From a virus: a stretch of 64,000 nucleotides of DNA. The notes under the pieces were generated by a model. The model was not told where the DNA came from and did no database searches. It saw only the letters and a program-made list of their open reading frames with translations. The stretch lies in IMG/VR virus record IMGVR_UViG_3300029305_006219. One strand, 5' to 3'. The position numbers and the translations under genes were made by a program. Positions 6,391 through 46,363 of this stretch are shown piece after piece. Positions within the stretch are counted from its first letter, which is position 1. Every line of letters starts with the position of its first letter.

Positions 6391-6762
6391 ATGAATATTG
6401 AAGATATGATCATGAATGGTGCATCTGAAGAAGAGATTGCAGAAGCTATAGACCAGATTCGCGCCAAGAGAACCTTGAAAATGGAAGAAGAGCGTCAGGC
6501 GCGCGAATCTCAAAAGAAGAAAGATGAAGAGCAGACCGCGAAAGAGGCGCTTAAGGCAGAGGCTCGCGCGCATTTCATCAATGCTGTACTTGCATATAGT
6601 GAGGCTTTTGACCTTTTGGAAGAGGGAGAGAGCTGGACTGAAGAAGATCTAAAAGAGGTGGAAGAGTACCTTATTCAGATTGAAGGAATAATTCCTATGT
6701 ATGCTAAGATGATGAAGAAGAAAAAGGAATTCGGATTTGGAGATCTTTTTGGATTGATATAA
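6391..6762 (+). CDS. hypothetical acidic coiled-coil protein (about 123 aa)
   Basis: The most plausible start is the ATG at 6391 (RBS aagaaaggaa) inside track ORF 6232..6762. Confidence 0.5.
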   Translation: MNIEDMIMNGASEEEIAEAIDQIRAKRTLKMEEERQARESQKKKDEEQTAKEALKAEARAHFINAVLAYSEAFDLLEEGESWTEEDLKEVEEYLIQIEGIIPMYAKMMKKKKEFGFGDLFGLI

Positions 6763-6974
6763 GCGCCGGTCCAGGTTATAGAAGTATAAATATAGAGAAT
6801 AGAGCGTTGGGTAAAACCCGGCGCTCTTATTGTTTTACCTCTTGACGCGACGAAGGCGCATTGGCGCCGAGGAGCGAAAGTTAAAAATTTTTCAAAAGTA
6901 GATAATTGTATTACCTTAATTTTAATATAACAATGACAAAGAAATACATTGTCACTAAGAAAGATTGTAACGAA

Positions 6975-7040
6975 TTATTAAACTACTTAATTTTATAGTC
7001 ATTATAAAAGTCATTACAATCTTTCCAATACTAAAAGAAA
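6975..7040 (+). promoter_or_regulatory. structured 5' leader of the HTH regulator gene, with a 10-bp inverted repeat AAGATTGTAA...TTACAATCTT
   Basis: A perfect 10-bp inverted repeat separated by about 50 nt, together with the direct repeat tcattataaaag/tcattacaat, lies immediately upstream of the RBS and the GTG at 7055. Confidence 0.4.
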
Positions 7041-7054
7041 GGAGATGAATTATA

Positions 7055-7762
7055 GTGAAACTTGTTGAAGGTAAAATAACTTTAGCTAATTTGGCTACTT
7101 GGCTAGGAGTATCTGCAGGCACCCTGCGCAATAATAAAAGTAAGTATTTAAATATTTTAGCTCGCTATTGCCGATATCATGAAGAAGGAACTACCAAAAA
7201 GACTCTTTATATTGATGAAGTATACGAAGCAGAATATTCGGCGCTATAGGGTCCAAAACCTTATCAAAGAGTAAAAGAGTTAACAAGAGAGGGTTGGAGC
7301 GCAGAAGGGCTAGATAGTTGTGCTCTTGTTGCAAGTCGTAATTTTCCTATTCTATAGCAAGAGGGATACACAATTACAGAAAATACCAATTATAATTATA
7401 CTTGTTAGAGCAGAACGGAACTTTGGGGCAGTCCTATGAAGCGCACAAATGGTGAGCTTGGCTATTGTCGTTATGAGTATTGTAAAATTGGACCTTAGGG
7501 CAAGCTTGTTCCGCTTAATGAGGAAGAATAGAAGATTAAGCGCTAGATCACAGAGAAATACTTTGGTAATTTAGAAGATTTTACTCTTGGGATAGCTGAT
7601 GATATTAAAACTGGTAAGATTACTGCGGAAGAGGCTGGTATTGCATTAGCTAATTTAGGTAGTCATGGAGAATATTTAGCTTGGAAGAATGAACTTGAGG
7701 CTAGACTAGGTTGTAAGATTTATAAAGGAACAAGAATACATAATGAAGAGAGTGCGTTTTAA
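7055..7762 (+). CDS. Xre-like HTH transcriptional regulator (about 235 aa) with 6 in-frame TAG codons
   Basis: N-terminal HTH motif ITLANLATWLGVSAGTLRNNKSKYL. The track ORF ends at the TAG at 7247. The same frame then continues for about 170 codons with five more TAGs and no TAA/TGA until the TAA at 7760-7762. A terminator follows directly. Confidence 0.55.
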
Positions 7763-7777
7763 TGCGCACTCTTTTTG
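7749..7777 (+). terminator. intrinsic terminator
   Basis: Hairpin agagtgcg-ttttaat-cgcactct followed by TTTTT. Confidence 0.6.
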
Positions 7778-8374
7778 CCGTGTATTTATTTTTACTATGC
7801 ATTTCTAGCAAAAGTACTACACGTAGTAAAATCAATACACGATGAATGTGGTAATTTGCTAAGTTTTTTAATCATACTCAGCCTATACTTCGCTTGATAA
7901 TAAATAATATTAGGTACATTTGCAACCTTTCTGCGTTACCCTTTTTTAAGGCAACGGCAACTATAAGTAAGGAGTATGAGAAGTTGTTGCCTTGTTTTAA
8001 GGTAACAGAAGCGCCTTTCCATTTTATTACATTTTTACCAAATTTTGGTAATACGCATCTATACTACCCTCAAGTCACGGCCTCCCCTTAACTCATTAAC
8101 CAATAGTAGCTCCTTTCTTCTTTACTATTGTCATCTTTTATTCTTTTCACTATAATTATACCATAATTTTCACTAAAATTCAACTTTTTCTCTTGGATCT
8201 AGGCGGCAATCATCATATTTTTCATTTCTGCGACCAAATTTTAGCATTATTGAAAGAACAAAAACAAGGAAAATACATTAGAAATATGAGTTTTTGATAA
8301 AATATTCATATATTATGCGAAAAAATTGATAAAAATGCTAATTATAGGAAAAAATAATGAAAATGAAACAACCA

Positions 8375-8600
8375 AAAATCGCGGGCGTTATAGTGGAAAG
8401 CACTGGACTAGAGCGATGACGGCTCTTTGCGATTGTCCGCGGCCCGAGCATATGCGCGTGCGCGCTATAGAGGTAGAATTAAGGGAAAACAGTGACTGCG
8501 CCAAACAACTATTTTTCGGTCGGTATAATATGGAAGAGATGGTAGATTCTGGAAACGGGGCTAGCCGGTGGCTAGCGACCCGCGCAATTATGAACAAAGT
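8375..8600. other. GC-rich structured island (candidate ncRNA or DNA recognition element)
   Basis: A sharp local rise in GC content. A CGCGGG...CCCGCG helix closes the element. Inside it are the hairpin AGAGCG..GCTCT, the palindrome GCGCGtgCGCGC and a tandem palindromic GGCTAGCC-ggt-GGCTAGC. Track ORF 8326..8604 is unconvincing as protein. Confidence 0.35.
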
Positions 8601-8618
8601 GTGAACAAGGGCGCAGAT

Positions 8619-8655
8619 AAAAAAAACAGAAGGCTTTACCCTCTGTTTTCTTTTA
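8619..8655. terminator. bidirectional intrinsic terminator (ends the leftward early operon)
   Basis: An A8 run, then hairpin acagaagg..cctctgt, then a T-rich run. Confidence 0.6.
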
Positions 8656-8669
8656 GTGACATTTGGCGC

Positions 8670-8912
8670 TCAATCCTCTGTCACCTCTTCCTCTCCGTTT
8701 TTATCATACAATTTTCCGTCTGTACAACAGCCGTCATAGGTCAGGCGCATATATTCTATCCAATGATGACCGCAGTTATGACATCTGCGCTCTATTGAGA
8801 TTATCTCGTATAAGTCACCATTCTGTTCGGTGACATCTATCTCGGGGTCACTTGAATTATAGACCTTTTCAAACTCGCCGCATTTCGGACATTCGTATTC
8901 TCTTGTTTTCAT
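8670..8912 (-). CDS. small zinc-ribbon protein (80 aa)
   Basis: CPKCG...CHNCGH motifs. Intact ORF. Confidence 0.5.
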   Translation of the reverse strand: MKTREYECPKCGEFEKVYNSSDPEIDVTEQNGDLYEIISIERRCHNCGHHWIEYMRLTYDGCCTDGKLYDKNGEEEVTED

Positions 8913-9196
8913 TCTTCTTCCTCGCTTTCTTCGGGAATATCATAAGATAGGATTGTTCCATAGTATATGGCAGTATACAAATTGCGCCATCGTTTTTCGC
9001 AATTAAGACATTGATAAGTTTCCTCAACGAAGCCGTTGTTGTCATTTGGATATTCAAATGGATTTACTCCACTTCCATCATTCCAAACGATATTATCAGA
9101 TTTGCAAAAAGGACACACAATCCCTGCTTTGGGAAGTCTTACCATAGTATTATTGGCGGTATAGTTTCCTGTTTGTAATTTCTTATATATATTCAT
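8909..9196 (-). CDS. small zinc-ribbon protein (95 aa)
   Basis: CPFC...CLNC motifs and a TGA stop. It overlaps the neighbouring genes. Confidence 0.5.
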   Translation of the reverse strand: MNIYKKLQTGNYTANNTMVRLPKAGIVCPFCKSDNIVWNDGSGVNPFEYPNDNNGFVEETYQCLNCEKRWRNLYTAIYYGTILSYDIPEESEEEE

Positions 9197-9232
9197 TCCT
9201 CTTCCTCGCTTTCGTAGTGGGGGTGACTTTCG

Positions 9233-9703
9233 TCACCCCTCGGTAAAGTAGGTGTCAAATTCGCCTTTAGTTTTAAGCGATTCAAGACCTTTCTTCGTGT
9301 ATCTCGTCAAGTCAAGCTTAAAGTATTCACCGCCTTGCTTGAACACTATCATTTTACCCGCCTTGACGATTTTACAGTAGTCTGCATTTTCCGATATAGC
9401 GGTTTCGATTGCTTGGATAATTCCGTTCTTAGTTTTATCCTCTTTCACTACCCTCTCGCGCTGTGTCTTTTGCTTATACTCGGTTGATTTAGCTTTATGA
9501 ACCGTTGCGCTAACTCGATTCTCTTTAGCTTTTGCGGTGAGTGCTTGTTCTTCTTCGTTGTCGATATAATCGTTATCAAAGAGCCAAAGGTCAACCGCCT
9601 CTTGCCGTGAGCATTTAAGCATACGCATATTCAGCTCTATTGCCTCATTCGGTACTCGCACTGTGCGCCCGTTCTCAAGGGTATAAAGGCTATAATCTGC
9701 CAT
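9233..9703 (-). CDS. hypothetical protein (156 aa)
   Basis: Intact ORF with a TGA stop. A class-A promoter lies directly upstream. Confidence 0.55.
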   Translation of the reverse strand: MADYSLYTLENGRTVRVPNEAIELNMRMLKCSRQEAVDLWLFDNDYIDNEEEQALTAKAKENRVSATVHKAKSTEYKQKTQRERVVKEDKTKNGIIQAIETAISENADYCKIVKAGKMIVFKQGGEYFKLDLTRYTKKGLESLKTKGEFDTYFTEG

Positions 9704-9730
9704 TGGTTTTTACCTCTCTTTCTGTCCTCT

Positions 9731-9759
9731 TGACATATATATTATACCACACTCTTGGT
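9731..9759 (-). promoter_or_regulatory. early leftward promoter (class A: TTGACA-N17-TGgTATAAT plus an upstream A/T tract)
   Basis: The reverse complement reads cTTGACAaatgaccaagagtgtggTATAAT. On the minus strand an A-tract aaaaaatttttcaaaaac lies upstream of the -35. Confidence 0.55.
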
Positions 9760-9816
9760 CATTTGTCAAGAGGTTTGGTAAAAGTTTTTGAAAAATTTTT
9801 TTGGTATGAGGGAGAA

Positions 9817-10227
9817 TTACTCTCCCTCTACCTCGTCTACTACCCCGTAATTAAGGGAGTAGTATGCAACTTTCTTTTCAAGGGTGCGCTTAAAGTCTGC
9901 GCTCTTGGACACGATAGCGGTAATCATCTGTGACGATACGTTATCTCCGTTAGCTCTCTTATACTCTTTGATAGAATCGACCTTGAGGAGTGAGCCAACG
10001 GTCATTCCCTTTTCATCTACACACTCGGCGAGAGCGTCCTTGATAAGTTCGGTTACTGCGAGAGCGTCTTTCTGCGCAGGAGTGAGAGAAGCGGACTTTG
10101 AGTTCTTACGGGAGAGAAGCTCTATCTCGTGAGCCATAACATCTGCCCACTCGGTTTTGCCGTTCTCTATGAGGAACGCTTTGATGTTCTCAAAATTCTC
10201 TCTCTTGGTGATTTTCTTTTCTGCCAT
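9817..10227 (-). CDS. small protein, paralog family member 2 (136 aa)
   Basis: Similar in length and blocks to 1225..1614 and 10799..11203, e.g. ...SSQMITAIVSKSADFKRTLEKKVAYYSL. Confidence 0.55.
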   Translation of the reverse strand: MAEKKITKRENFENIKAFLIENGKTEWADVMAHEIELLSRKNSKSASLTPAQKDALAVTELIKDALAECVDEKGMTVGSLLKVDSIKEYKRANGDNVSSQMITAIVSKSADFKRTLEKKVAYYSLNYGVVDEVEGE

Positions 10228-10306
10228 AGTTTTCTACCTTTGCGATCTGTGACCGCCCTTTCAAAATTTTTTATTTCAAGAGGATTTTCCTCTTGATTAC
10301 ATATAT

Positions 10307-10335
10307 ATTATATCACAAGTTTGTGATTTTGTCAA
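10307..10335 (-). promoter_or_regulatory. early leftward promoter (class A)
   Basis: The minus strand reads TTGACA-N17-TATAAT (plus-strand attatatc...ttgtcaagggg). Confidence 0.5.
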
Positions 10336-10429
10336 GGGGTTTTTGAAAAGTTTTTCAAAAATTTTTTATTTTTTTCAGTGGTTGCAACTACGGGACGATG
10401 CCTCGCAAGGTCGTTCTATCCGTCACCGC

Positions 10430-10476
10430 CCCTTGACTACGATAATATTATATCATAAAAAGATAAATTTGTCAAT
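10430..10476 (-). promoter_or_regulatory. early leftward promoter (class B, with upstream TGCACAA operators)
   Basis: The minus strand reads TTGACAaatttatctttttatgaTATAAT. It lies about 80 nt upstream of the class-A promoter, a tandem arrangement. Confidence 0.45.
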
Positions 10477-10491
10477 AGAAAATGGGAAAAT

Positions 10492-10545
10492 AATTTGCAC
10501 AAATTTGAGAGGAATTTTGGTGAGAAAATTGTGCAACTTGCACAA
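10492..10545. promoter_or_regulatory. operator-like palindromes AATTTGCACAAATT and TTGTGCAAcTTGCACAA
   Basis: A perfect 8-1-8 inverted repeat at 10529-10545. The same 17-mer recurs at 12857-12873 and 16958-16974, and related half-sites occur upstream of other class-B promoters. Confidence 0.5.
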
Positions 10546-10557
10546 AAACGCACAAAT

Positions 10558-10625
10558 CGGCCCAGCGGCGGCCGCCGTTGGGCCGGTCAAAAAAAGACCT
10601 CTGCCGTCGCAGAGGTCTATCCTCG
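10558..10625 (-). terminator. tandem terminator: a GC-rich palindrome plus a hairpin with T7
   Basis: ggcccagcggcggccgccgttgggcc, then hairpin agacctctg..cagaggtct followed on the minus strand by T7. Confidence 0.5.
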
Positions 10626-10798
10626 AGGTTGACCATTCTCGCTTTCTCGCCACTCCTTGCGCATAGGGGACTTTGGTTTTAATGGTCTGCAAAGGCGTGT
10701 GATTTGAACACACATCTGTTGGAAACGAAACCAACTGTTCTTCCATTAAACTACCCTTTGTTATGTATGAGGGGCGCATTTGCGCCCCTGTGCCTCAC

Positions 10799-11203
10799 TC
10801 ACGCAAGGCGAAAGTAAGTGACCTTTTTGTCAATGGTCTTGACTACATCACCGCAGTCAACGAGCTTTTTAAGCATAGAGGAAACTCGCTGTGAAGATGT
10901 TTCCTTACCATCTGCCCACTCAAACTCTGCGATACGAGAATCCTTTGCTATCGCACCGCACTGCATACCCTTTACATCGGTTGCTTCTGCGAGAACATCA
11001 TGAATGAGGTCAAGGAAAGTATCAACTTCCTCTGCGCGCTTTGCGCTGACCTTACCACTCTTGCTTTCAAGCTGACCGAGCTTCTTTTCGGCAAACTCGA
11101 TTACTTTATCCATAGGGATTGTGGTCGGCTCTCCGCTTGCCATCTTGATGATTTCCTCATACATCTGCTTCTGTGTGTACTTGATTTCCTTGATTTCTGC
11201 CAT
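10799..11203 (-). CDS. small protein, paralog family member 3 (134 aa)
   Basis: Third member of the family, e.g. ...SSQRVSSMLKKLVDCGDVVKTIDKKVTYFRLA. TGA stop. Confidence 0.55.
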   Translation of the reverse strand: MAEIKEIKYTQKQMYEEIIKMASGEPTTIPMDKVIEFAEKKLGQLESKSGKVSAKRAEEVDTFLDLIHDVLAEATDVKGMQCGAIAKDSRIAEFEWADGKETSSQRVSSMLKKLVDCGDVVKTIDKKVTYFRLA

Positions 11204-11354
11204 AATTTTTTTCCTCTCTTGCTATTAGGTTGCAACCCTTTAATTTTATTTATCAGAGGTATTCCCTCTTGATTACATATATATTATACCATACTTTTTG
11301 GTATTTGTCAATAGGTTTTTGAAAAATTTTTTATTTTTTTTCTTGGGTAGAGGG

Positions 11355-12074
11355 TTATTCACCCTCTACCTCTTTGCGCTTATGAAAGGGATATACCCAT
11401 TCACCCTCTGGAGTTAAGCAACCGAGTTTCGTGCGCTCTTGGAAGATATTACAACCTCTTTTTCCAAGTTCACAAAGAATACGGAGTTCCCATTGAACAT
11501 CGGAAAGTGCGGTATGTTCCTCAACAAAATCTTTATCTTGGTTAAGAAATGCGGTTACACCCTCAACAGAGGTCGGTATATATTTACCACTTGGAGTGCG
11601 GAGTTCGTGTTCGTTGCAAAATGCGATATAATCTGCGGTAGAGCATATGTCGTATTGTGCATTACACCATATATCTATAACCTCGATTTTGTCAAGTGGA
11701 TTCAAAATACCGAGCGCAGTTGCGGTTCTGCGGAATTTGTCCTCGTCAAACTCGGAGTTATAGGCAAAGCCATACTGTATGCCATATCGGTCAATATCTC
11801 TTGCTATTTGCTCAAATATCTGTTTTTCGGTACGGAGTATTGCCGTTCCGTTCTCAACATTCAAGTCAAACTTTGCGAGTTTTTCTGCTTTGACGAACAT
11901 ATCATTCAAGAGCCAAATGCGGTTGTGATAATGTTTGCCTACAAGATAGTCTTTGCCTTTGAGTATCTTATACTTAAAGGTTGTTAAGTCAACATCTGCT
12001 ATACAATAGCCTATGTTAAGTAGTGTTTGGGTACAACACCCTGCGGTTTCGGTATCAAATACCATAATGTTCAT
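11355..12074 (-). CDS. DEDDh-family 3'-5' exonuclease (DnaQ / RNase T-like), 239 aa
   Basis: Exo I motif MVFDTETAG, a later FDxxF block and the Exo III motif H-TALSDVQWE. Intact ORF with a TAA stop. Confidence 0.7.
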   Translation of the reverse strand: MNIMVFDTETAGCCTQTLLNIGYCIADVDLTTFKYKILKGKDYLVGKHYHNRIWLLNDMFVKAEKLAKFDLNVENGTAILRTEKQIFEQIARDIDRYGIQYGFAYNSEFDEDKFRRTATALGILNPLDKIEVIDIWCNAQYDICSTADYIAFCNEHELRTPSGKYIPTSVEGVTAFLNQDKDFVEEHTALSDVQWELRILCELGKRGCNIFQERTKLGCLTPEGEWVYPFHKRKEVEGE

Positions 12075-12159
12075 TTTTTCTTTTCCTCTCTTTCTGTCAT
12101 AGGGAGTAGCCCTCGCTCTCCACTCGACATATATATTATATCACATCTTGACGAATTTG

Positions 12160-12606
12160 TCAAGAGGTTTTACAAAATTTTTTCAAAATTTCAAAAATTT
12201 TTTCGGGCGGAAATGCGTCACCCTTAGTCCACTCAAGGCGGTTGCGCTCTTCATCGTCAAACAGTATGCCCTCACTCTTGGCTACGGACGATTTGGGTGT
12301 GCCATATGGAACGATATGCAATTCATCAAAAATAACGGACTTCAAGTGCTTTTTGAGCCATTTGCGCTTGGCTTTAGTGACCGCCTTGTTATAGTCCTCA
12401 GTTGCGGCTTTAGACAGCCACGATATAACACCTATATGAACGCCATTGCGCTGAGCCTTATTCAATGCTCTTGCAAGTGCAGACATATTGTGCATAGGTC
12501 TTGCTTCTTCATATGGGCGCGTTCGCTTGGCTTCAAGGTCATCGAGCCAGCCTTCGACCGCATAAAGGTCAGCAACGGTGCCGTCAAGGTCTAAATAAAT
12601 TGTCAT
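12160..12606 (-). CDS. HAD-superfamily 5'(3')-deoxyribonucleotidase-like phosphatase (NT5C-like), 148 aa
   Basis: HAD motif I LDLDGTVADL at the N-terminus. Size and layout are typical of phage NT5C-like enzymes. Confidence 0.6.
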   Translation of the reverse strand: MTIYLDLDGTVADLYAVEGWLDDLEAKRTRPYEEARPMHNMSALARALNKAQRNGVHIGVISWLSKAATEDYNKAVTKAKRKWLKKHLKSVIFDELHIVPYGTPKSSVAKSEGILFDDEERNRLEWTKGDAFPPEKIFEILKKFCKTS

Positions 12607-12640
12607 TTGGTTTAGTTCCTTTCTTCCTTACTGCTCTTAT

Positions 12641-12669
12641 ATTATACCATACTTTGAGCGATTTGTCAA
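12641..12669 (-). promoter_or_regulatory. early leftward promoter (class A)
   Basis: Plus-strand attatacc...ttgtcaagggg with a 17-nt spacer. A second, class-B promoter lies at about 12745-12795. Confidence 0.5.
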
Positions 12670-12856
12670 GGGGTTTTTGAAAAATTTTTTCAAAAATTTT
12701 TGAGTGTCCACTGATTAGCAAGTCCATTTCACTGCTTTTGTTTCTCACCCCTTGACTACGATAATATTATACCACAAAGGGCGCAAAAAGTCAAGCGGTT
12801 TTGGGAATTTTCTTTTCGTCAATTTGCACAAACTTTTGGCGAAAAAATGCGTGGAA

Positions 12857-12935
12857 TTGTGCAATTTGCACAAAAACGGCGCCACACCGATCGGTGGCGC
12901 GCCGACCAAAAAGAGGGAGATTAATCTCCCTCTAT
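12857..12935 (-). promoter_or_regulatory. regulatory/insulator cassette: TTGTGCAAtTTGCACAA, then the GC palindrome ggcgccaCACCGATCGGTGgcgcgcc, then a terminator hairpin
   Basis: Same element order as at 10492-10625. The terminator hairpin agagggagattaatctccctct overlaps the TAA stop of gene 12921..13130. Confidence 0.5.
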
Positions 12936-13130
12936 TATGATTTTATTGATAACTTTTGCATAGTCTTCTTGCGCTCTTCGGAATGCTTGTGCCGCAGTAT
13001 GCAAAGGGCATTCTTCGCAATCAATTTCGCCGCACTGTATATGAATGCAGGGGTCAATCATTATAGCTTCAAGAGTGTCGTGCTGTTCTGTTGCGGTTAT
13101 TGTGACTATGATTTTCATATTTACCTCCAA
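12921..13130 (-). CDS. small Cys-containing protein (69 aa)
   Basis: ORF from the track with a TAA stop. Confidence 0.45.
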   Translation of the reverse strand: MEVNMKIIVTITATEQHDTLEAIMIDPCIHIQCGEIDCEECPLHTAAQAFRRAQEDYAKVINKIIIEGD

Positions 13131-13381
13131 ATTAAATTGATAAGATAATAAGTATTCATCGCAAATAATGCGACATTAAGTATTACAAGATTTATGCGCC
13201 TTGCGCTAAAGCAAAATGCGGTTGCGATTGCCGAGCCGATGAAGAATAATACTGTCATATCGGCGCCACACATAACACCTATTGCGCAAGCGGTATAGAT
13301 TAGTGCGGTGATATCGGTGATATCAAATTCATAGGGGCGGTCAAGGCTGAAATAGGTTTTTAGTTTACCAATCAAAGTCAT
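13121..13381 (-). CDS. small membrane protein (86 aa)
   Basis: Two hydrophobic segments. TAA stop. Confidence 0.5.
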   Translation of the reverse strand: MTLIGKLKTYFSLDRPYEFDITDITALIYTACAIGVMCGADMTVLFFIGSAIATAFCFSARRINLVILNVALFAMNTYYLINLIWR

Positions 13382-13553
13382 CTACCTCTTCTTCCTCATA
13401 ATCATTAGTATAATAATATTGCGTGGTTTTGAACTCTTTACCACAACCGCATTTATATTTGCGACTTGCGACAATTTGCTCTCCGTCCTCTTCATATTTT
13501 GCCGATAAATATTTAACTTGGGCGGTGCTACCGCAATTTGGACATTTAATCAT
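13365..13553 (-). CDS. small zinc-ribbon protein (62 aa)
   Basis: CPNCG...CGCGKEF motifs. Confidence 0.5.
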   Translation of the reverse strand: MIKCPNCGSTAQVKYLSAKYEEDGEQIVASRKYKCGCGKEFKTTQYYYTNDYEEEEVDDFDW

Positions 13554-13753
13554 TTTAATTTAAGCTCCTTTCTAATATTGATAATTCCACGAAATTCTGC
13601 GGTATAGATTGCTTCACAGTGAGGGCAACAAACTTTAGCCTCAAAATCTGCTTCATACCCGTCAAAATTCCATATCTTTGCATCCACATCTCCACAGAAC
13701 AAGTCATCTCTGGTTATAAGTTTATCGCAATTTGGGCATTTAATCATTTTCAA
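13550..13753 (-). CDS. small zinc-ribbon protein (67 aa)
   Basis: CPNC...CCPHC motifs. Confidence 0.5.
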   Translation of the reverse strand: MKMIKCPNCDKLITRDDLFCGDVDAKIWNFDGYEADFEAKVCCPHCEAIYTAEFRGIINIRKELKLK

Positions 13754-13945
13754 ATTCTCCTTGATATTCTCTTATTGTGCAATATCCACTCCAACGCCAT
13801 TCAAGGCATTGTTGATTGATATATTCTTGTGCCTGTTCTTGACTATCAAAGATAGGCGGTTTATTATCTCCTATGAATCCTTTATGCAAGAAGCCGTTTG
13901 GACAAGAGCGAGTATGAATATAAATTACATATTGCATAAGTATTA
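13740..13945 (-). CDS. small protein (about 68 aa); the longer track ORF 13740..14273 is rejected because it runs through the tRNA
   Basis: An internal ATG with RBS aagaggtaatacttATG lies just downstream of the tRNA. Upstream of it, the ORF translates tRNA and promoter DNA (..GSIPIRF.. matches the T-arm). Confidence 0.35.
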
Positions 13946-13957
13946 CCTCTCTTTTTT

Positions 13958-14032
13958 TGGTGAAGCGAATGGGAATTGAACCCACAACGCAGTTGAATAG
14001 TGTCAACCTCATTACCTTTGTGATACCGCTTC
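13958..14032 (-). tRNA. tRNA with CTA in the anticodon loop: candidate amber (UAG) suppressor tRNA
   Basis: Minus-strand sequence GAAGCGGTATCACAAAGGTAATGAGGTTGACACTATTCAACTGCGTTGTGGGTTCAATTCCCATTCGCTTCACCA. The 7-bp acceptor stem has one G.U pair. U8, A14 and GG are in the D-loop. The T-arm is GTGGG/CCCAT with loop TTCAATT. CCA is encoded. The anticodon stem GTTGA/TCAAC is perfect but the loop CACTAT has 6 nt, which is atypical, so the fold needs software confirmation. Confidence 0.6.
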
Positions 14033-14045
14033 TTATTACATTTAT

Positions 14046-14074
14046 ATTATACCATATAATCTTGCTTTTGTCAA
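14046..14074 (-). promoter_or_regulatory. consensus promoter driving the tRNA (TTGACA-N17-TGgTATAAT)
   Basis: The reverse complement reads cTTGACAaaagcaagattatatggTATAAT. The predicted transcription start is about 7 nt before the tRNA 5' end. Confidence 0.55.
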
Positions 14075-14217
14075 GAGGTTTTCGAAAAATATTTGCAACT
14101 ATTTTTCTTATCTCCGATACTTTCCTACTCAAAGCTTTCGTGTCCGTTCTCTTGTTGTACACCAAGTTTCTGATTTCCATTCCTTGCAAGTTAATTTCTC
14201 CGCACGAGGTTCCCCCT

Positions 14218-14258
14218 CTTGACATTATTATTATATCATACAATCGGGAAAATGTCAA
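14218..14258 (-). promoter_or_regulatory. second (class-B) promoter upstream of the tRNA
   Basis: The reverse complement reads cTTGACAttttcccgattgtatgaTATAAT. TGCACAA-type sites lie at 14275-14319, a GC palindrome at 14321-14347 and a terminator at about 14350-14385 further upstream. Confidence 0.5.
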
Positions 14259-14461
14259 GTGGTAATGTTGCACAAAGTTTCAACAAAAAAATGGCGGGAA
14301 GTGTACAAAATGCACAAAACGGAACGCGCCGGCCGGGCTCGTTCCGCTCGGATTTCAGGCAAAAAAGAAAAAACCCAGAACTCATGAAAAGCTCTGGAAA
14401 TTTGTTGAGAGGTCTACTTCGTGGAAATTCGGACTTGGCGCGACCGCCTTCGTCCGTCAGC

Positions 14462-14764
14462 TTAATGGCTGAAGTGTTTCAACACGTCTTGTACATTGTA
14501 CTCATTTTCATCATCACTCATAATTATAATTTTATTTTCCCATTCAGCAGGAATGCTTAAAATTTTAAATGTTTCCTTTAAGAATGAAATCATATTCGTA
14601 CAATCATTTTTTTGATTGTCAGAATGAAAGAGAAGGGCGCCCAACTCTTCACAATAAAGTGCATGAAGTGGATAGTCTTGCGCCGAGAGGGTTTCCCAAT
14701 CAAGGGGAGTAAGTGATGATTCAAAAGAAGTGATGACAAGAGCGTGGATGAAGTGATACTTCAT
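14462..14764 (-). CDS. hypothetical protein (100 aa)
   Basis: ORF from the track with a TAA stop. Confidence 0.5.
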   Translation of the reverse strand: MKYHFIHALVITSFESSLTPLDWETLSAQDYPLHALYCEELGALLFHSDNQKNDCTNMISFLKETFKILSIPAEWENKIIIMSDDENEYNVQDVLKHFSH

Positions 14765-14846
14765 ACCGCGTGACCTCCTTGTATCTCTTATTTCTTTTTA
14801 CATTTATATTATAATATAAAATTTTATAAAAATCAATGGGTGTGGA

Positions 14847-15055
14847 TTATTCCACACCCAAGAGTTCCTTTATTTTATTGACTACTTGCTCTTGTGCTTG
14901 TTTCAGAATGTAATAATCACAATTATCAAGTGTTGCAATATAATCATCTACCGCTATGCGGATTTCAATTTCATTACTATTATGATTAAGATCATACTCC
15001 TTAATGATTTCTTTTTCATTGATTTCTACGCCCGTAGTAATCTCTATATACATAT
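14847..15055 (-). CDS. small protein (about 68 aa, starting MYIEITTGVEINEKE)
   Basis: A strong RBS aaaaggagaaaacaatATG lies inside track ORF 14847..15173. A class-A promoter at 15386-15414 serves the operon. Confidence 0.45.
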
Positions 15056-15096
15056 TGTTTTCTCCTTTTGCGAATTTCCAAATTTTTCCAATGCGC

Positions 15097-15354
15097 CTAC
15101 CAAGCGACTCGGATATGATATCTACCTTCAAAAAGGTTTTTTTCAATCTCAGCCTTGTAGCCAAATTTTTCAAGATTCGCTCTTATGAGTTCGACCTCAT
15201 CTTTGGAAACCTCTTTTACTCCACTGAAATAACCTTGTGAAGCCCTTTTTTTGATGAAGCGCAACATCTCTTTCATTGCCCACGAATGCATGAATTGGTT
15301 TTGATTATTTTCTGCCATCTCTCTTGCTTCCTTTGCGGTCATAGGGTTTTTCAT
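15097..15354 (-). CDS. hypothetical protein (85 aa); the only early gene found that ends on TAG
   Basis: The stop codon is cta on the plus strand at 15097-15099, which is TAG on the minus strand. The frame stays open for about 22 more codons. Confidence 0.5.
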   Translation of the reverse strand: MKNPMTAKEAREMAENNQNQFMHSWAMKEMLRFIKKRASQGYFSGVKEVSKDEVELIRANLEKFGYKAEIEKNLFEGRYHIRVAW

Positions 15355-15428
15355 AAGTATTTCCTCTCTTTCTTTTAGTATATATATTATACCATACTTT
15401 TATATATTTGTCAAGTAGTTTTTGAAAA

Positions 15429-15653
15429 TTATTTGAAAAAAATTTCAAGCACAATTACATCGTCGCAACAACCCTCAATAGTTATTTCCATACTATCTAT
15501 CTTGCGGTTAGCATACTCTTTAATATGCTCACATTCTTTAACATACCAATCGATTGATTGAGCACCAAGCCATTGTTCTGCTTTGAGTAAGAAGTTGTCA
15601 TAAATGCGGATTTTATCTATGTTGTAGATAAGCGGAAGTTGTGCAAGTGTCAT
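15429..15653 (-). CDS. hypothetical protein (74 aa)
   Basis: RBS AGAGAGG. A class-B promoter lies at 15686-15714. Confidence 0.5.
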   Translation of the reverse strand: MTLAQLPLIYNIDKIRIYDNFLLKAEQWLGAQSIDWYVKECEHIKEYANRKIDSMEITIEGCCDDVIVLEIFFK

Positions 15654-15832
15654 AAGTCATTTTCCTCTCTTTCTTTTACACTTATATTATACCACAAATA
15701 TCGGGAATTGTCAATAGGTAATAATCAACAAAGTTTTGCGCCGATTTTTGTGCAAAATGCCAGCCCACAGATAAAACGGCTCGGCGCGCCCGATGCCGAG
15801 CCGCCAAAAAACAAAAGAGGGCAATCGCCCTC

Positions 15833-16213
15833 TTAGGTTTGATATTTAGTTATCTCTGTGGAAGAGCTTTGCGCCACCATTAGCGAAATACACCTTTGCA
15901 TTGTATCGAGTTCAACCACTCTGATGACTTTGCCTTTAGCATACGCATATCCGCACTCCCAAGCTGATCCAAGGTCACCATTGGCGCCTTCGCAAAAATA
16001 GAGAATTTCATCACATTCATCTATTGCTTGAACGTCGTGTTGGAATACCTTGCGCGCCCATTCGGAGTTAGGTAAAGCTTTAGCATTAGGTATCTCTAAT
16101 TCGTGGGGAACGTAAACTTTATATCCTAACTGTCGTAAGAGTTTTGCGTGCTTGTTTATTCTGTCCTTTTGGCTTTCGGTAAACATAGCACTTGCTATAT
16201 AAAACTTTTTCAT
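15833..16213 (-). CDS. nucleoside 2-deoxyribosyltransferase-like protein (NDT / Rcl-DNPH1 fold), 126 aa
   Basis: N-terminal FYIASAMFTE and catalytic-region DLGSAWECGYAYAKGKVI match the NDT family pattern (YxAGxxF ... D.G...E.GyA.a.gK). Confidence 0.55.
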   Translation of the reverse strand: MKKFYIASAMFTESQKDRINKHAKLLRQLGYKVYVPHELEIPNAKALPNSEWARKVFQHDVQAIDECDEILYFCEGANGDLGSAWECGYAYAKGKVIRVVELDTMQRCISLMVAQSSSTEITKYQT

Positions 16214-16238
16214 ATCTCACCTCTTGATAGTGGATAGA

Positions 16239-16457
16239 TTATTCATCTATCCACTCTTTTACTTTATAGGCTGTAACCTCGACAATATCAGCGGTGAATT
16301 TTATCTCTCCCGTAAAGTTATAGATTACGTAAGTATTACCTCTGTTATTTGTCGTAAACTCTCTTGCAAACTGAATTGCCATACTAAGATCGTCAAAATC
16401 AGCAATATGTTTGCCGTCCGCATAGACGCCATAGTCAAGAATGTCAAATTTTACCAT
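16239..16457 (-). CDS. hypothetical protein (72 aa)
   Basis: RBS AAGGAAGG. A class-B promoter lies at about 16486-16522, directly preceded by ATTTTGCACAAAATT. Confidence 0.5.
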   Translation of the reverse strand: MVKFDILDYGVYADGKHIADFDDLSMAIQFAREFTTNNRGNTYVIYNFTGEIKFTADIVEVTAYKVKEWIDE

Positions 16458-16555
16458 AATATTAATACCTTCCTTCCTTTACTGTGCCTATATTATATCA
16501 TATTACTTGCCTCTTGTCAATAGGCATTTTGCACAAAATTTTGCGGCGGGTCTTG

Positions 16556-16864
16556 TTAACAATATACAAGACCCATATCACGCCAACGGAGAATAGAAAT
16601 TTGAGAGCAGGCGCGCCCGACCTCAAGCGCTTTTTTCAAGGTACTTTCGCGATGGCTCTTGTCTATGTAATAAACTCCAGAACTATACCATATACCACAG
16701 TTGCCTTCGTATGCCTTAACGGCGTTGATTGCTTCGCGCGGGTCACGGGTTTCGATACCTTCGGTGGCTACTTGGTAGCCTGTTTTGAACGTGACGCGCT
16801 GACCCTTTTTGAGAGTTAAGCCGTCATTATCTTTAAGTTTGAGAATCGAGCGAATGTTAATCAT
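16556..16864 (-). CDS. hypothetical protein (102 aa)
   Basis: A class-B promoter at about 16895-16925, with TTGTGCAAcTTGCACAA at 16958-16974 upstream of it. Confidence 0.5.
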   Translation of the reverse strand: MINIRSILKLKDNDGLTLKKGQRVTFKTGYQVATEGIETRDPREAINAVKAYEGNCGIWYSSGVYYIDKSHRESTLKKALEVGRACSQISILRWRDMGLVYC

Positions 16865-17041
16865 AGGTGTTTCCCCTTCCTTTATCTTACGTACTTATTA
16901 TACCATAAAAGCGGGAATTTGTCAATAGGCAAAAGTAACAAAGTTTTGATAGTAAATTTGTGCAACTTGCACAACTATGCGTAAAGCGTCACGCCGCGGC
17001 CCTTGGCGTGACGGCGAAAAAAAAAGAGGGCGCAAGCGCCC

Positions 17042-17242
17042 TCATATGAAGTCGGCAAATTGGTCTTCCACCCAAGCCATTATAAGAGGATTAAAGGTTT
17101 GTATCTCAACCTCTACGCATGAGGGATGGACTTGGAGAAGAATTGCCTCTCCTGCGTTATTAGCGGCGAGGAATGAGCAGACTTTTTGCACCGCCATACC
17201 GCTTTCAAAAGTTTTATTAAGCATAAAATTCTTATACTGCAT
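17042..17242 (-). CDS. small protein (about 66 aa)
   Basis: RBS ataagaaaggagatatatATG. It is the C-terminal part of track ORF 17042..17443, whose 5' part overlaps gene 17271..17558 out of frame. Confidence 0.4.
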   Translation of the reverse strand: MQYKNFMLNKTFESGMAVQKVCSFLAANNAGEAILLQVHPSCVEVEIQTFNPLIMAWVEDQFADFI

Positions 17243-17270
17243 ATATATCTCCTTTCTTATGGGGATTGCC

Positions 17271-17558
17271 TTAGCAATCCCCCGTATAGCAACCCATATA
17301 GGGGTCAAAGCCGTTTTCATCAGGCTCTTCTTCCTCATAGTCATACCAGTCGTCATTATAATAGAGGGTCTCAGAGCCGTGATGGTAAATGATGCGCGCC
17401 ATATCTGTCGCCTCTGCTTCAGTAAGATAGCCATTAGCAACAAGCTCTATAAGTCTGCCTATTGCAAGAGAATGAGTATCTTCAAGTCCAAATTCCGTAC
17501 AAGCAAGATTGAAGCAAGTCTGCAAGTCGAGTTTTGTGTAATCCATAATGCACCTCAT
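17271..17558 (-). CDS. hypothetical acidic protein (95 aa)
   Basis: ORF from the track. A class-B promoter lies at about 17596-17632. Confidence 0.5.
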   Translation of the reverse strand: MRCIMDYTKLDLQTCFNLACTEFGLEDTHSLAIGRLIELVANGYLTEAEATDMARIIYHHGSETLYYNDDWYDYEEEEPDENGFDPYMGCYTGDC

Positions 17559-17832
17559 AGTATTTATTTGAGAGTCTATTCCCTCTCTTCTTGCCTATAT
17601 TATATCATATATTCTTGCATTTGTCAATGAATAAAATGTAAACAATATATGAATTATGGGACGGGATCCAATCATAGTTTATTCAATCAATTGAAATAAA
17701 AAATTTACAAATTGTTCACAAATTGCTTTAACGGTGCGCGCCGACCGTGCCCGCACCGAGCGATATAAAAAGGCGCGCCAAAGGTCACCCTAAGGCGCGT
17801 TATAGTGTTGATATGAGATGCTAAGGGCGCGC

Positions 17833-18126
17833 TCAGGCGCCCTCATCATCAAGCTGACTCTCTATAAATGGTATGATGATATTGAATATTTCAACTTCTT
17901 TATTGGTTAAGCCTATAATATCGCAATATGCTATTGGCTCTGCTATATCTTTATATACCGTGCGTACTGAGGGGCTTAAATGGTATGGGTCAATATAAGG
18001 GTCGCTATCACTATCACCCCACATTCTGTCACCTTTGACATCGTATATTGCCAATACATCGCCGAAGTAGCGGGCAAGATATTCTGCCCATTGTGTAAAC
18101 TCATTTTGTATGCTTATTCTTTTCAT
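17833..18126 (-). CDS. hypothetical protein (97 aa)
   Basis: ORF from the track. Confidence 0.45.
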   Translation of the reverse strand: MKRISIQNEFTQWAEYLARYFGDVLAIYDVKGDRMWGDSDSDPYIDPYHLSPSVRTVYKDIAEPIAYCDIIGLTNKEVEIFNIIIPFIESQLDDEGA

Positions 18127-18130
18127 TATA

Positions 18131-18346
18131 TTATTCCCCCATTATCTCCGCTATTGTGTTATCATATATTCTTTTTGCTTTAGTAACGCCATATTGAAAC
18201 GATATAATACCCTTACGATAGTCATCTAATATATGCCCTATGGCGATAGTTGTAGGGTGTTCAAGTCCTAACTCTTTACACGCTTTATTAAAGTATCTTC
18301 TTATGCTCATAATATTCTCCCTTCTTGAGAGGTGGATTATCTCCAC
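18131..18346 (-). CDS. hypothetical protein (71 aa)
   Basis: ORF from the track. Confidence 0.45.
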   Translation of the reverse strand: MEIIHLSRRENIMSIRRYFNKACKELGLEHPTTIAIGHILDDYRKGIISFQYGVTKAKRIYDNTIAEIMGE

Positions 18347-18681
18347 CTCTCACCTCTCTCTATATCAAAGTAATATATAATTTCATCAGCGTCAATGAAT
18401 TTATTTAAGTCAAGACCGCTATTGTAAAACAAGTCATTTAATTCATCAAGATTATTATAGTCATAAGGGTCAAACTCATAAAGTTCATCTTCATTATTGC
18501 AAAATGGGCAAGGGTCATTGTATTCCATAGCATACTGAGGAAGAGTCACTTTATGACACTTGCTACAATAAAGTAAATCTGTTAAACGGGCAGGGCGAGT
18601 AACTATTTTGTTATTAAGATAAAACGTCGCAAGATATTTGTTATTGTATTCATTGTGCTTTGTGTTAATAGTAATTTTCAT
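18337..18681 (-). CDS. Cys-containing small protein (114 aa)
   Basis: CSKCHK...CPFC motifs. Confidence 0.45.
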   Translation of the reverse strand: MKITINTKHNEYNNKYLATFYLNNKIVTRPARLTDLLYCSKCHKVTLPQYAMEYNDPCPFCNNEDELYEFDPYDYNNLDELNDLFYNSGLDLNKFIDADEIIYYFDIERGERWR

Positions 18682-19269
18682 TATTATATACCTCTCTTTT
18701 CTTTATCTTGACGGGGCTATTATATAGCCCCGTATAATTTCATAGGGTTACTTATATTGATTTTCTCTTGAGTGTTTTCTAACTGTTGTATTAAAGCTTT
18801 TTCCTCTAACTCTTGTAAAGCAAGTTCAAACTCATACTCTCGACGGTTATCAATGTGCTTGTCGACCACTATTTTATTTTTCATTATCTTCACCCCCTTT
18901 GTCTATAATGGTAATAGCAATTTTTGCAACAAGTGCAATTAAACCTATTACTAACCAAGTGCCAATAAATTCACCTAACATTTTTTTACCTCTCTGTTTT
19001 GATTTTTTGTTTGCGCTCTCTCTCTTGGAGCATACTCATTGTATCACTTCTTTTTGAACTCCAAGTTTCGAAATTATGAACTTTTTGTAAATCCGACGGG
19101 ATTTTTCAAATTTTTTTTGTTAACAACTACACAACAATCTCGACATCTTTTGTTCATAATTTATTCATAACTTTTTTAGTTATTTTCGGGAAAAAAATTA
19201 TTCACAATTTGTTCACAATTCCGCTCACGACATCTCCCTCCTAGAATATTTCTTTTATTTCAAAAAACG

Positions 19270-19310
19270 AACTTCTAACAACAAAAGAGGGATTTTAACA
19301 AATCCCTCTT
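19270..19310 (-). terminator. intrinsic terminator (leftward)
   Basis: Hairpin agagggatt..atccctct followed on the minus strand by TTTTGTTGTT. Confidence 0.5.
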
Positions 19311-19346
19311 TGCTTCTCATATTCAATTGAAAATTACGCACACGTA

Positions 19347-19826
19347 TTATAGTTCCTTAAAACGCTCGTTTTCTATTTCTCCTAGACTCTTTCGAATCTC
19401 TTCAGGATAATGATGTTTTACGCATTTAAAAATATTCTTTTTACCCATTGGATATAATTCGCCAACATGGCGGAAAAAGAAGCATATAGGCGGCAAATGT
19501 GTAACTATATCACTTCCATTTCTAAACATGGTGAAATGTGCCCAGCGCTCTCTTAATTCTTTCTTAACGCGCCAGCCGCCATAGATTCTAGGTCCATCAA
19601 ATCCAATACCGGTTAACCCCTCTGCGCGCAAGTCTTCTCTATGAAACCACACAGCTTCATGACATAATGCGGCAAGAGCTGCGCCATGACTATAACCAAC
19701 TACTACAATACGTTTCCACCTATAATCGCCGCTAAATCCTTTCTCGGTTGCGCGCCTAATAACAATATCTTCTATTGTTTTCCAGCACTTTAAGAAGCCT
19801 CCATGTACCCTATATTTTATCTTCAT
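19347..19826 (-). CDS. class-3 lipase-like alpha/beta-hydrolase fragment (159 aa), possibly N-terminally truncated
   Basis: GxSxG nucleophile elbow GYSHGAALA. The protein is shorter than typical Lipase_3 family members. No start codon is available further upstream in frame. Confidence 0.4.
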   Translation of the reverse strand: MKIKYRVHGGFLKCWKTIEDIVIRRATEKGFSGDYRWKRIVVVGYSHGAALAALCHEAVWFHREDLRAEGLTGIGFDGPRIYGGWRVKKELRERWAHFTMFRNGSDIVTHLPPICFFFRHVGELYPMGKKNIFKCVKHHYPEEIRKSLGEIENERFKEL

Positions 19827-20167
19827 ATCTTTATAGGGGCGGCGCCAGTAGGCGAAGTTAGCGCACCAATCTAGCTTACCGCGACTTGGCTAGAAAAAGA
19901 TGTAAAGTGTCTTATCGCTCTCCAAAAATGCATAATTTACTTTGCCCTCTGCCTCTTGGTACTCAATCCAATTATTGCACCAATTAAATAACTATACTAA
20001 ATTCATGGCGCGCCCACCCTTAGCCGCTTAAGGTAACTGTCTAAGGAAGATATAACCTAGACCGGCGCTCTCTTAAAATAATAATCATCTCTTTTCTCCT
20101 TTCATATGATGATACTATTATTATAACAGATTTTTTTATAAAGTCAAGTACTTATTTCATTAACCTC

Positions 20168-20196
20168 TTGACATAGTAAAAATTTTTTGGTATAAT
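20168..20196 (+). promoter_or_regulatory. consensus sigma-70 promoter at the head of the rightward structural operon (TTGACA-N17-TATAAT)
   Basis: ctcTTGACAtagtaaaaattttttggTATAATttat, then the RBS aaaggag and the ATG at 20227. Confidence 0.6.
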
Positions 20197-20226
20197 TTAT
20201 TTAAAGATAGATGAAAGGAGTTTTGA

Positions 20227-21399
20227 ATGGATACATTACAAACTTTAGACGACCTTTTGTCTGATGAGGATTTAGATATTGAAGACTCTTCTGAACAAGA
20301 GGAAGAAAATATAGAAGAGAAAATTATCACTGAAGATATTGCGCAAACTATAAAATTAGATTATAAGTTAGCTACCTGCGAAGAGCGCTCGGCGTTGGTT
20401 AATAAGATTATAGCCCAAACCCCTGCCGCCTCTTTAACAAATCGTTATTTAGAAATTTTAGGCGATTATATTATGGGAGGTATCACAAAAGAAGAACGTA
20501 AATCGCACCTATACCTTACTGACAATAGAATGATTACTGTTGCAAGGCGCGAAACGTCTTTTGAAGGTTTGGCAGAAAAATTTGAAAATGGAGAAGATGG
20601 TATTTATAATTTAATGACAAATGATAAAAATATTATCTTTGCACCAAAAAATACAATCACTGAAGAAGATATAGAAAATGTTCCTGGTCTTAAGCAATTG
20701 CGCGAGGCTATTATTCAAATTGAAGAGGAGGGGAAACGTGCTATAGGAAAGCGCAAATACCTTCTCAAAAAGCAACTCATAGAAATGCGTAAAGACCAAT
20801 ATATCTTAAAGAATTCATATTAGGCCCCCATGGTTTGCACTCCTTGTGCAAAAGGAGCAAATAAAATTGATTTAAGTGAAAAAAAATATGTAGATGAAAA
20901 TGGAGATCCACAAAGCACAGGTTTAATTTCTTTTTTTAAACCAGAGCATATTCAAGCAATTTTAAATAATTATAATGCTTTAAAAATAGAGACTAAAGGT
21001 AAATATTCTAGTGACTTTTTTTATTTGATGGAAGATTTTGATAAATTATTACATAAGGCATTAGATAATTATCCTATGTATTTTGATATTGTAAAAATGA
21101 AAGTAAATGGAAAAACAAATATTGAAATTCAAAAAATGTTAAAAGAAAAACATAATACAAGTTTTACTGTGTAGTACATTTCCAGTCTATGGTGTAAAAA
21201 AATTCCTAAAATTATAGCTGAGAAAGAACAGCATGACTTCTTAATCTGGTATTATCGTAATGAACAAAAAGGCCCATGGAAGCGTTGCTCTTGTTGTAAA
21301 GAATTTAAACCAGCTAATTCGCGCTTTTTCTCTAAGAATCGCACAAGTAAAGATGGATTTTATAGCATTTGCAAAATGTGCCGCAATAAGAAAAAATAA
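20227..21399 (+). CDS. hypothetical protein (about 390 aa, 2 in-frame TAG) with an acidic N-terminus and a C-terminal CxxC..CxxC motif
   Basis: Track ORFs 20227..20823 and 20830..21174 plus a further segment share frame 1. They are separated only by TAG codons and end on TAA at 21397-21399. Confidence 0.5.
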
Positions 21400-36733: not shown

Positions 36734-36828
36734 GGTCAAAATAAGATAAATTTAATACCCTAACTATTATATATTAGTAGTATAGGGTATTTTATTTTAC
36801 CTAAAACGAGAAACAAGGAGGATATATA

Positions 36829-46257: not shown

Positions 46258-46363
46258 AATAAGGCGGCTAAGGGCAACTTTAGCCGCCTTTGGGCATTTC
46301 TATTTAATTTATTTATTATAATTTTTATATTTTTAGAAGAGAAAAAAGGAGGTATAATAATTT

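Follow-up and report, generated by a model that had tools for sequence, protein, structure and literature searches.

A conserved non-coding module with a GC-rich island in a TAG-recoded phage, possibly expressed as a plus-strand RNA

Results

The GC-rich island and its genome setting

The window, i.e. the whole 64,000-nt stretch of DNA analysed here, belongs to a TAG-recoded phage that is a distant relative of Phass-1. At positions 8375-8600 it carries a GC-rich island, flanked by a rightward module and by the terminator that ends the leftward operon, the position at which a reading made from the sequence alone had already placed it. The island has a GC content of 0.509, compared to 0.351 in the window as a whole and 0.24 in the 225 nt that lie upstream; only 0.44% of 226-nt windows have a GC content this high. 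The sole other stretches that reach it are 16581-16807, 16971-17207, 27221-27597, 39901-40127 and 54971-55197. The strings singled out by the sequence-only reading are all present: CGCGGG (8380-8385), CCCGCG (8579-8584), AGAGC/GCTCT (8410-8426), GCGCGTGCGCGC (8454-8465), GCTAGCC-GGT-GGCTAGC (8560-8576) and TATAAT (8524-8529). Read on the plus strand, conserved blocks alternate with variable stretches along the island; the conserved blocks are GCGGCCCG (8439-8446), UAUAG (8466-8470), GGGAA (8483-8487), AAACA (8503-8507), UAUGGAAG (8529-8536) and GAAACGG (8552-8558). Richness in UAG was considered as a signal and set aside as not compelling (seven TAG against 4.1 expected, P = 0.11; three CTAG, P = 0.05).

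TAG is a sense codon in the plus-strand late and structural genes (20227-64000), where reading it through merges fragmented frames into long ORFs, such as those of 3150 codons with 82 in-frame TAG (36805-46257) and of 1655 codons with 32 in-frame TAG (46361-51328). The minus-strand early genes (8.7-20 kb) contain almost no TAG, and a CUA suppressor tRNA was not found within the window. Gene callers that use the standard code fragment the recoded late genes. One structural protein shares 46% identity with a protein of Phass-1 (135,976 bp, "Caudoviricetes code 15 clade") and 37% identity with those of Enterococcus phages of 134-142 kb (PMC10607447). Metagenomic contigs as long as 135 kb contain the locus in identical form, and the proteins around it have almost no annotation.

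The early region contains at least 14 promoters with a 12/12 match to the TTGACA-17-TATAAT consensus, nearly all with the extended TG (9741-17627 on the minus strand and 20168-20196 on the plus strand). Their density is far above chance and many have the string GGTATAATAT in common. Since the minus-strand region is this rich in perfect TTGACA-17-TGnTATAAT promoters, the host polymerase is of the sigma-70/sigma-A type. A 17-nt palindrome, TTGTGCAAGTTGCACAA, occurs in two identical copies (10529-10545 and 16958-16974), each about 35-55 nt upstream of the -35 box of a perfect early promoter, and looks like an operator. Half-sites related to it (TGCACAA, TGTGAACAA) are found in the tail of the element (8591-8608) and in relatives. 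The GC-rich stretches near 16.6-17.2 kb flank the second copy of TTGTGCAAGTTGCACAA, and further non-coding elements may lie there.

A second GC-rich island of the window, 10227-10690 on the minus strand, lies between two early genes and looks like a cluster of small RNA genes. At least two non-coding stretches in it start from promoters of their own (10475 and 10335), about 100 nt ending in a terminator come after a tRNA-like gene, and a GC hairpin of 12 bp is located at about 10558-10591. The tRNA-like gene (10689-10760, minus strand) scores 44.6 bits with Rfam and has an 8-nt anticodon loop, UUUCGUUU, and ARAGORN gives it no assignment. Its orthologues in relatives (L012 3493-3563, L014 7947-8016, L015 8018-8087 and L038 10100-10169) have differing, unusual anticodons or loop sizes (AGG, AGU and a 2-base call).

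Relatives and conservation

Relatives were reached through the upstream 123-aa protein (6391-6762), whose family comprises about 140 clusters, by way of its contigs and IMG/VR; their genomes are of about 120-200 kb. Of the loci that cover the corresponding gap, all but L011, which gave no match, yielded the element in a nucleotide profile search. The comparison set amounts to 13 distinct sequences (14 with the near-identical L039), and as these are few and mosaic, the statistics given below are limited. Exact-pattern scans of viral, metagenome and genome collections yielded one chance match and no further relatives, and the element is absent from Phass-1.

In the relatives the element always occupies the gap between the last plus-strand gene and the convergent minus-strand operon, and the island can be aligned in all 13 variants retrieved. 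Relatives share 50-81% nucleotide identity with it, compared to 60-68% in the 123-aa gene nearby; by this measure the island is conserved about as much as the protein gene next to it, and comparison of the variants shows it to be under selection. Within the subfamily of the window, four variants differ by 25-62 substitutions with zero indels over 267 nt. Conservation reaches beyond the island and extends over about 8008-8655, a non-coding module of about 650 bp of which the island is the 3' part.

The variants are mosaic, hairpin type, tail repeats, terminator type and upstream block type being reassorted among them. Thus L038 and L029 are almost identical elsewhere and have completely different hairpin stems. 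In L016 the module as a whole has the opposite orientation with respect to its neighbours, with the internal order of promoter, island and terminator kept. In L012 an HNH endonuclease gene interrupts the module between the promoters and the island; about 75 nt of the leader are left and the island persists. Homing-endonuclease genes (HNH, GIY-YIG) are found at varying places around the module in relatives (L012 679-1302; L022, L025, L027, L029-L031 and L038).

The ORF over the island

A 92-aa ORF (8326-8604, plus strand; 89 aa from the ATG at 8335) covers the island, and we conclude that it is not a gene. It had been judged implausible as a protein from its sequence, and the substitution pattern, the loss of the frame and the lack of a family match bear this out. 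An excess of third-codon-position substitutions, which would have spoken for a coding region, was not found: substitutions at codon positions 1/2/3 number 8/11/6 between the window and L001, 18/17/16 with L002, 24/19/19 with L043 and 36/35/35 with L004, and the corresponding ratios of synonymous to non-synonymous codons are 4:16, 1:27, 4:34 and 6:53. In L004 the frame is broken by insertions that are not multiples of three. Across the 13 variants none of the six frames over the island is conserved, even when TAG is read through, and the conserved nucleotide blocks fall in different frames in different lineages. On this substitution and frame pattern the island region is non-coding.

The ORF has no Pfam hit, its best PHROG match is at E = 0.07, and a large protein collection holds four clusters of homologues (P0001-P0004). 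At least 25 public contigs list an ORF over the island as a hypothetical protein; the gene calls are corrected here, and the island ORF should not be annotated as a gene in public collections. The opposite view, that the ORF at 8335-8604 encodes a small, fast-evolving protein of the lineage of the window which was lost or frame-shifted in other lineages, could appeal to the frame of 82-125 codons that stays open in the window, L001, L002/L003 and L043 despite their 25-62 substitutions, with no indels. We consider this very improbable, because those same comparisons yield the low synonymous share given above (4:16, 1:27, 4:34) with no third-position excess, no ribosome-binding site precedes the ATG at 8335, no protein family matches, and the nucleotide blocks are kept across lineages whose frame differs. 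A stretch of 13 residues is almost wholly different between the window and L002, while the DNA similarity is kept in a shifted register.

Promoters, leader and terminator of the module

At 8128-8183 two overlapping, divergent sigma-70 promoter-like sites are arranged back to back. P_R (8128-8156, plus strand; TTGTCA-17-TATAAT) is a candidate promoter that matches the consensus at 11 of 12 positions, has a predicted start near 8163 and is the best plus-strand promoter site in 6500-11500; TTGNNN-17/18-TATA(A/T)T is found at its position in most relatives, with a weaker equivalent in the inverted locus of L016. P_L (8155-8183, minus strand; TTGAAT-17-TGnTATAAT) points outward from the island and its -10 box overlaps that of P_R. 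Among relatives its -35 box varies (TTGATT, TTGAAT, TTGAAA or TGGATT), with the 17-nt spacing and TGnTATAAT (TATACT in L016), and wherever the region is intact it precedes GCGGCCCG by about 266-295 nt; in L012, the variant with the HNH insertion, the spacing is different (-149) and the TG is lacking. P_R is weaker and less conserved than the overlapping P_L. The TATAAT inside the island (8524-8529), which the sequence-only reading had listed, was rejected as a promoter, as it has no -35 element and is missing from most relatives.

Between P_R and the island lies an AT-rich leader (8163-8374, plus strand; about 210 nt, GC 0.24), which is well conserved, with 46-83% identity to relatives and a 29-mer (8327-8355) that does not vary. 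No ORF is conserved in it, and the relatives differ from one another by indels that break the frame. Two copies of a direct repeat, TTGATAAAA...ATTAT..GAAAAAAT, occur in it with a period of about 30 nt. At the other end of the island, the tail (8591-8608) contains TGAACAA twice, in place of which some relatives have ATGCACAAA or TTGTGCAT; the motif is related to the palindrome TTGTGCAAGTTGCACAA upstream of early promoters.

The two-way intrinsic terminator T2 (8619-8655) ends the leftward early operon and would also end a plus-strand transcript of the island. It folds at -18.3 kcal/mol (z -5.0) on the minus strand and at -11.4 kcal/mol (z -2.35) on the plus strand. Nearly all variants have an A-run before and a U-run after it, and the stems covary. 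The U-run of the plus side is retained though no plus-strand gene precedes T2.

On the far side of the promoters, downstream of P_L (leftward from 8183-8155), a second conserved non-coding block spans 8008-8150. At least two sequence types of it exist among relatives, in several of which it ends at a two-way terminator, GAAAGGCGC...GCGCCTTTC. No conserved ORF was found in it, and the block may be a second non-coding RNA.

Pairing within the island

The sequence-only reading had pictured the island as a structure of about 220 nt closed by a CGCGGG/CCCGCG helix. This helix proved to be neither conserved nor beyond chance. Its two arms occur together only in the window and in the closest relative, L001; the 5' arm is missing in L002, the 3' arm in L004, and other variants compared lack the pairing altogether. 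In 9% of shuffles the two terminal 30-nt segments of the island form a perfect helix of 6 bp or more, and the CCCG of the supposed 3' arm pairs locally, in the hairpin at 8556-8582. Nor does the island as a whole fold better than dinucleotide shuffles, its z being +1.0 on the plus strand and -0.36 on the minus strand.

We compared several approaches to the fold (RNAalifold, averaged pair probabilities, column covariation, segment duplex z-scores and an own-versus-cross duplex test); they agreed only on the 3' hairpin and the terminator, and a full multi-helix fold was rejected on this ground. The 3' hairpin (GGCTAGCC-ggt-GGCTAGC, 8556-8582), whose stem changes are compensatory, has an outer stem CGGG/CCCG (8556-8559/8579-8582), an inner stem (8560-8566/8570-8576), a loop at 8567-8569 and a GA bulge at 8577-8578. 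Its mean pairing probability across variants is about 0.9, and its duplex energy is -15.1 kcal/mol when a variant pairs with itself versus -10.2 kcal/mol in the cross combinations. In a plain MAFFT alignment 84% of the cells are paired, both sides have changed in 7 of the 12 pairs, and the covariation score is 0.246, compared to 0.117 in shuffled alignments, a score that none of 500 shuffles reached; slid registers pair at only 31-46%.

About six unrelated inner stems exist (GCUAGCC, GAGG, CGAC, GCCUACC, CACC and GCUGGC), along with variable loops of 3-4 nt (GGU, GAU, GGA, CGAG, GGAC and GAUA), while the outer stem CGGNN/NNCCG, the bulge on the 3' side and the flanks GAAACGG ... CCG are constant. 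This is the only helix of the island that is clearly supported by covariation. Among the internal hairpins that had been noted, the GCTAGCC one stood the comparison with relatives, whereas the AGAGC/GCTCT one is confined to the lineage of the window.

Two further pairings have a less distinct profile. A possible 5' hairpin, P1/P1a (8420-8446, plus strand; P1 8420-8424/8442-8446, P1a 8428-8432/8437-8441), has 81% of its cells paired; it is nearly invariant, only two pairs having changes in both strands of the stem. Its score is attained in 8 of 500 shuffles, and its stability in the window does not exceed that of shuffled sequence. We regard it as a weak candidate helix. A short variable hairpin (GCGCGtgCGCGC, 8447-8466, plus strand), between GCGGCCCG and UAUAG, has outer 3-bp stems that read AGC/GCU, CCA/UGG, CCG/CGG or CGC/GCG according to the variant, without one register; it does not stand out in the own-versus-cross test and its alternating stems are suggestive only.

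The covariance model of the 3' hairpin also matches the 5' region in L002 (27 bits) and in L016 (16.7 bits), and the flanks of the two regions are alike (UAU.UGGAAG ... CUGG..UAG ... ACGG-hairpin-CCG). This gives the island the appearance of a module present in two diverged copies with a spacer, an arrangement that is suggestive, the 5' copy of the window itself escaping the 3' hairpin model.

Several longer-range pairings were rejected. Those seen by eye in the segment alignment, between 8405-8411 and 8545-8551 and, in relatives, between CUAGACC and GGUCUAG, are copies of one near-palindromic motif in two related modules, and the 7-bp pairing 8474-8480/8545-8551 is present in the subfamily of the window and not beyond it. 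An inverted repeat (8073-8094/8476-8497) was dismissed because its two sides vary independently among relatives, with no co-variation. Repeats of the island or the hairpin elsewhere in the window, such as a diversity-generating-retroelement template or targets, were not found, and a search for antisense targets within the window returned only short AT-rich chance matches, none of which stands out.

The Rfam/Infernal comparison that the sequence-only reading had proposed matched no family, either in the window around the element or in seven relatives. Rfam 15 covariance models were run at gathering and at permissive thresholds: the sole family in the whole window was a tRNA, the best matches in 8100-8800 had E values of 0.1 or worse and were all terminator-like, and the element of the seven relatives gave no match. 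The element is, on these comparisons, a candidate new RNA family in an understudied phage clade, present in no curated family tested.

The strand of the 3' hairpin

The strand-diagnostic cells of P1/P1a (8 U.G versus about 4 A.C when read on the plus strand) lean slightly to the plus strand, the diagnostic pairs being too few to decide. For the 3' hairpin, analysis by hand found U.G in one type and, in another, a C-A mismatch that corresponds to G.U on the minus strand. The folding energy of the 3' hairpin is -17.5 kcal/mol on the plus strand (z -1.7) and -19.0 kcal/mol on the minus strand (z -3.05).

An alternative is that the hairpin works on the minus strand, as a second, back-up terminator or 3'-end hairpin of the leftward early operon, the rest of the island being DNA upstream of P_L. 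The slightly greater stability on the minus strand, where GUUUCC follows, is in line with this, as are the position of the hairpin 37 nt beyond T2, itself stronger on that strand, and the marginal model matches (E 0.03-0.2) at a second intergenic locus of three relatives, which read as minus-strand terminators of the form CCG-UUUUUCCAG. We nevertheless hold a minus-strand terminator to be improbable. The U-tract has only three U's, and in some variants it reads GAUUC or GACUU; the tail GUUUCCAG falls short of at least 5 U in 8 nt, and a terminator scan calls the hairpin on neither strand. About 180 nt of further conserved blocks would be left unexplained, and the related 5' module has no U-tract on either strand.

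Discussion

A putative plus-strand RNA

The island is non-coding and conserved, it contains one covarying hairpin, and a promoter-like site and a terminator are suitably placed on either side of it. We propose that it forms the 3', GC-rich part of a non-coding phage RNA some 490 nt long, read on the plus strand from P_R (8128-8156) to the terminator, and give this proposal an even chance of being right; the transcription, the strand and any function of such an RNA are what we infer from the arrangement of the signals. Host RNA polymerase would start the transcript at the sigma-70-type promoter at 8128-8156, cross the AT-rich leader (8163-8374) and then the island (8375-8600), and stop at the two-way terminator (8619-8655). 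The RNA would be mostly a string of conserved single-stranded blocks, with one firmly conserved stem-loop just upstream of the terminator (8556-8582) and perhaps a second, related one at 8420-8446. The stem-loop, which keeps its shape and flanks while the variants swap the sequence of the stem, may serve a protein or the 3' end of the RNA as a recognition or stabilising element, and the conserved linear blocks may carry the activity.

The proposal is favoured by the non-coding character of the island, selection, the covarying hairpin, transcription signals that fit, the order kept in L016, and the slight lean of P1/P1a to the plus strand. It is weakened by the lack of excess stability in the island as a whole, by there being one clear helix apart from the terminator, by a minus-strand folding of the hairpin and T2 that is equal or better, by the weaker and less conserved P_R, by the lack of an Rfam family, by the small and mosaic set of 13 sequences, and by the lack of a target match that stands out in the window. 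The idea of a structured ncRNA, put forward in the sequence-only reading, thus holds insofar as a conserved non-coding element sits in a promoter-to-terminator setting, but not as to the structure, since folding is not in excess and a single hairpin clearly covaries.

Alternatively, the module of about 650 bp might act as DNA, as a cis element that is either a replication origin or an extended regulatory region of the early promoters. The origin would be activated by the divergent promoters and have an AT-rich unwinding region beside a GC-rich part; the blocks would be protein-binding sites, and the hairpin a cruciform or a single-strand DNA signal. Such an element would account for the 210-bp AT-rich stretch (GC 0.24) flanked by strong overlapping divergent promoters, the two-copy direct repeats in the leader, the TATAG..GGAA-type motifs that recur through the island, the tail repeats with their relation to TTGTGCAAGTTGCACAA and hence to sites upstream of other early promoters, the conservation of length without conservation of frame, and the lack of excess RNA folding energy in the island. 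The compensatory change in the hairpin, however, points to a single-stranded nucleic acid, usually RNA, and in L012 the island persists while the leader is largely missing. No clear iteron array was identified, and no initiator gene was recognised, because the neighbouring proteins are without annotation. The GC-skew profile simply tracks transcription direction. The element is located mid-contig and not at an end in three IMG/VR contigs, which says nothing for a role as terminus or pac site. On balance we see a DNA-level element as possible and rather unlikely.

Returning to the RNA, a more specific and rather unlikely extension of the proposal is that the module makes up a new family of regulatory RNAs of phages, proper to the TAG-recoded clade of about 120-200 kb that is related to Phass-1, and that the stem-loop is its specificity determinant. 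In that case the targets of the blocks would be the host or the programme by which the phage expresses its own genes, and the swappable stem-loop would be read by a phage protein; the interchangeable stem-loop may be compared with immunity or incompatibility determinants. A stem-loop that determines specificity would explain the different stems in genomes as close as L038 and L029.

TAG-reassigning phages are known almost only from metagenomes, and their regulation is unexplored. An apparently autonomous non-coding module between the regulatory and the early regions is a handle on the programme of such a phage, a gain that is modest unless expression and function are demonstrated.

Comparison with known systems

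The phi29 pRNA (RF00044) is a structured phage RNA with paired 5' and 3' ends, which is how the sequence-only reading had imagined the island, and one head-fibre-like protein of the window has a weak match to the phi29 head fibre family. The element differs from pRNA in having no Rfam match and no conserved end-closing helix, and the genome is of about 135 kb here versus about 20 kb.

Origins that are primed or activated by transcription include ColE1 with its RNA II, T4 ori(uvsY) and ori(34), and the primary origin of T7. Like these, the element has strong promoters beside an AT-rich region, a conserved non-coding module and a G-rich segment (GC skew +0.16 to +0.25); unlike them, it has no overlapping antisense regulator, no initiator gene was identified, and the leader is dispensable in L012.

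Processive antitermination depends on RNA elements such as boxA and boxB of lambda nut and the put sites of HK022. The likeness consists in a non-coding module after an early promoter, made of linear boxes and a stem-loop, upstream of a terminator and possibly present twice, the transcript being putative in the present case. The differences are that the loop of the element varies while boxB loops are conserved, that no N-like protein was identified, and that beyond the terminator the plus strand holds only the antisense of the early operon for 11.5 kb. Same-strand genes that would need read-through of the terminator were not found in 8655-20227. Antitermination is weakened as an explanation because no plus-strand gene follows for these 11.5 kb and because the next operon, which begins at 20227, has its own promoter, a 12/12 match at 20168.

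Short terminated phage transcripts and stable RNAs are exemplified by lambda oop, the 6S transcript from P_R' of lambda, and the species 1 and 2 RNAs of T4. At about 490 nt the proposed RNA is longer than is typical of small RNAs, and it matches no described family in sequence or structure. It resembles lambda oop and 6S and the T4 species 1 and 2 RNAs in combining a promoter, a non-coding stretch and an intrinsic terminator in a stand-alone unit, in its position in the early or regulatory part of the genome, in the use that it would make of host RNA polymerase, and in having a stem-loop beside the terminator. By analogy, the element seems most like a stand-alone phage non-coding transcript.
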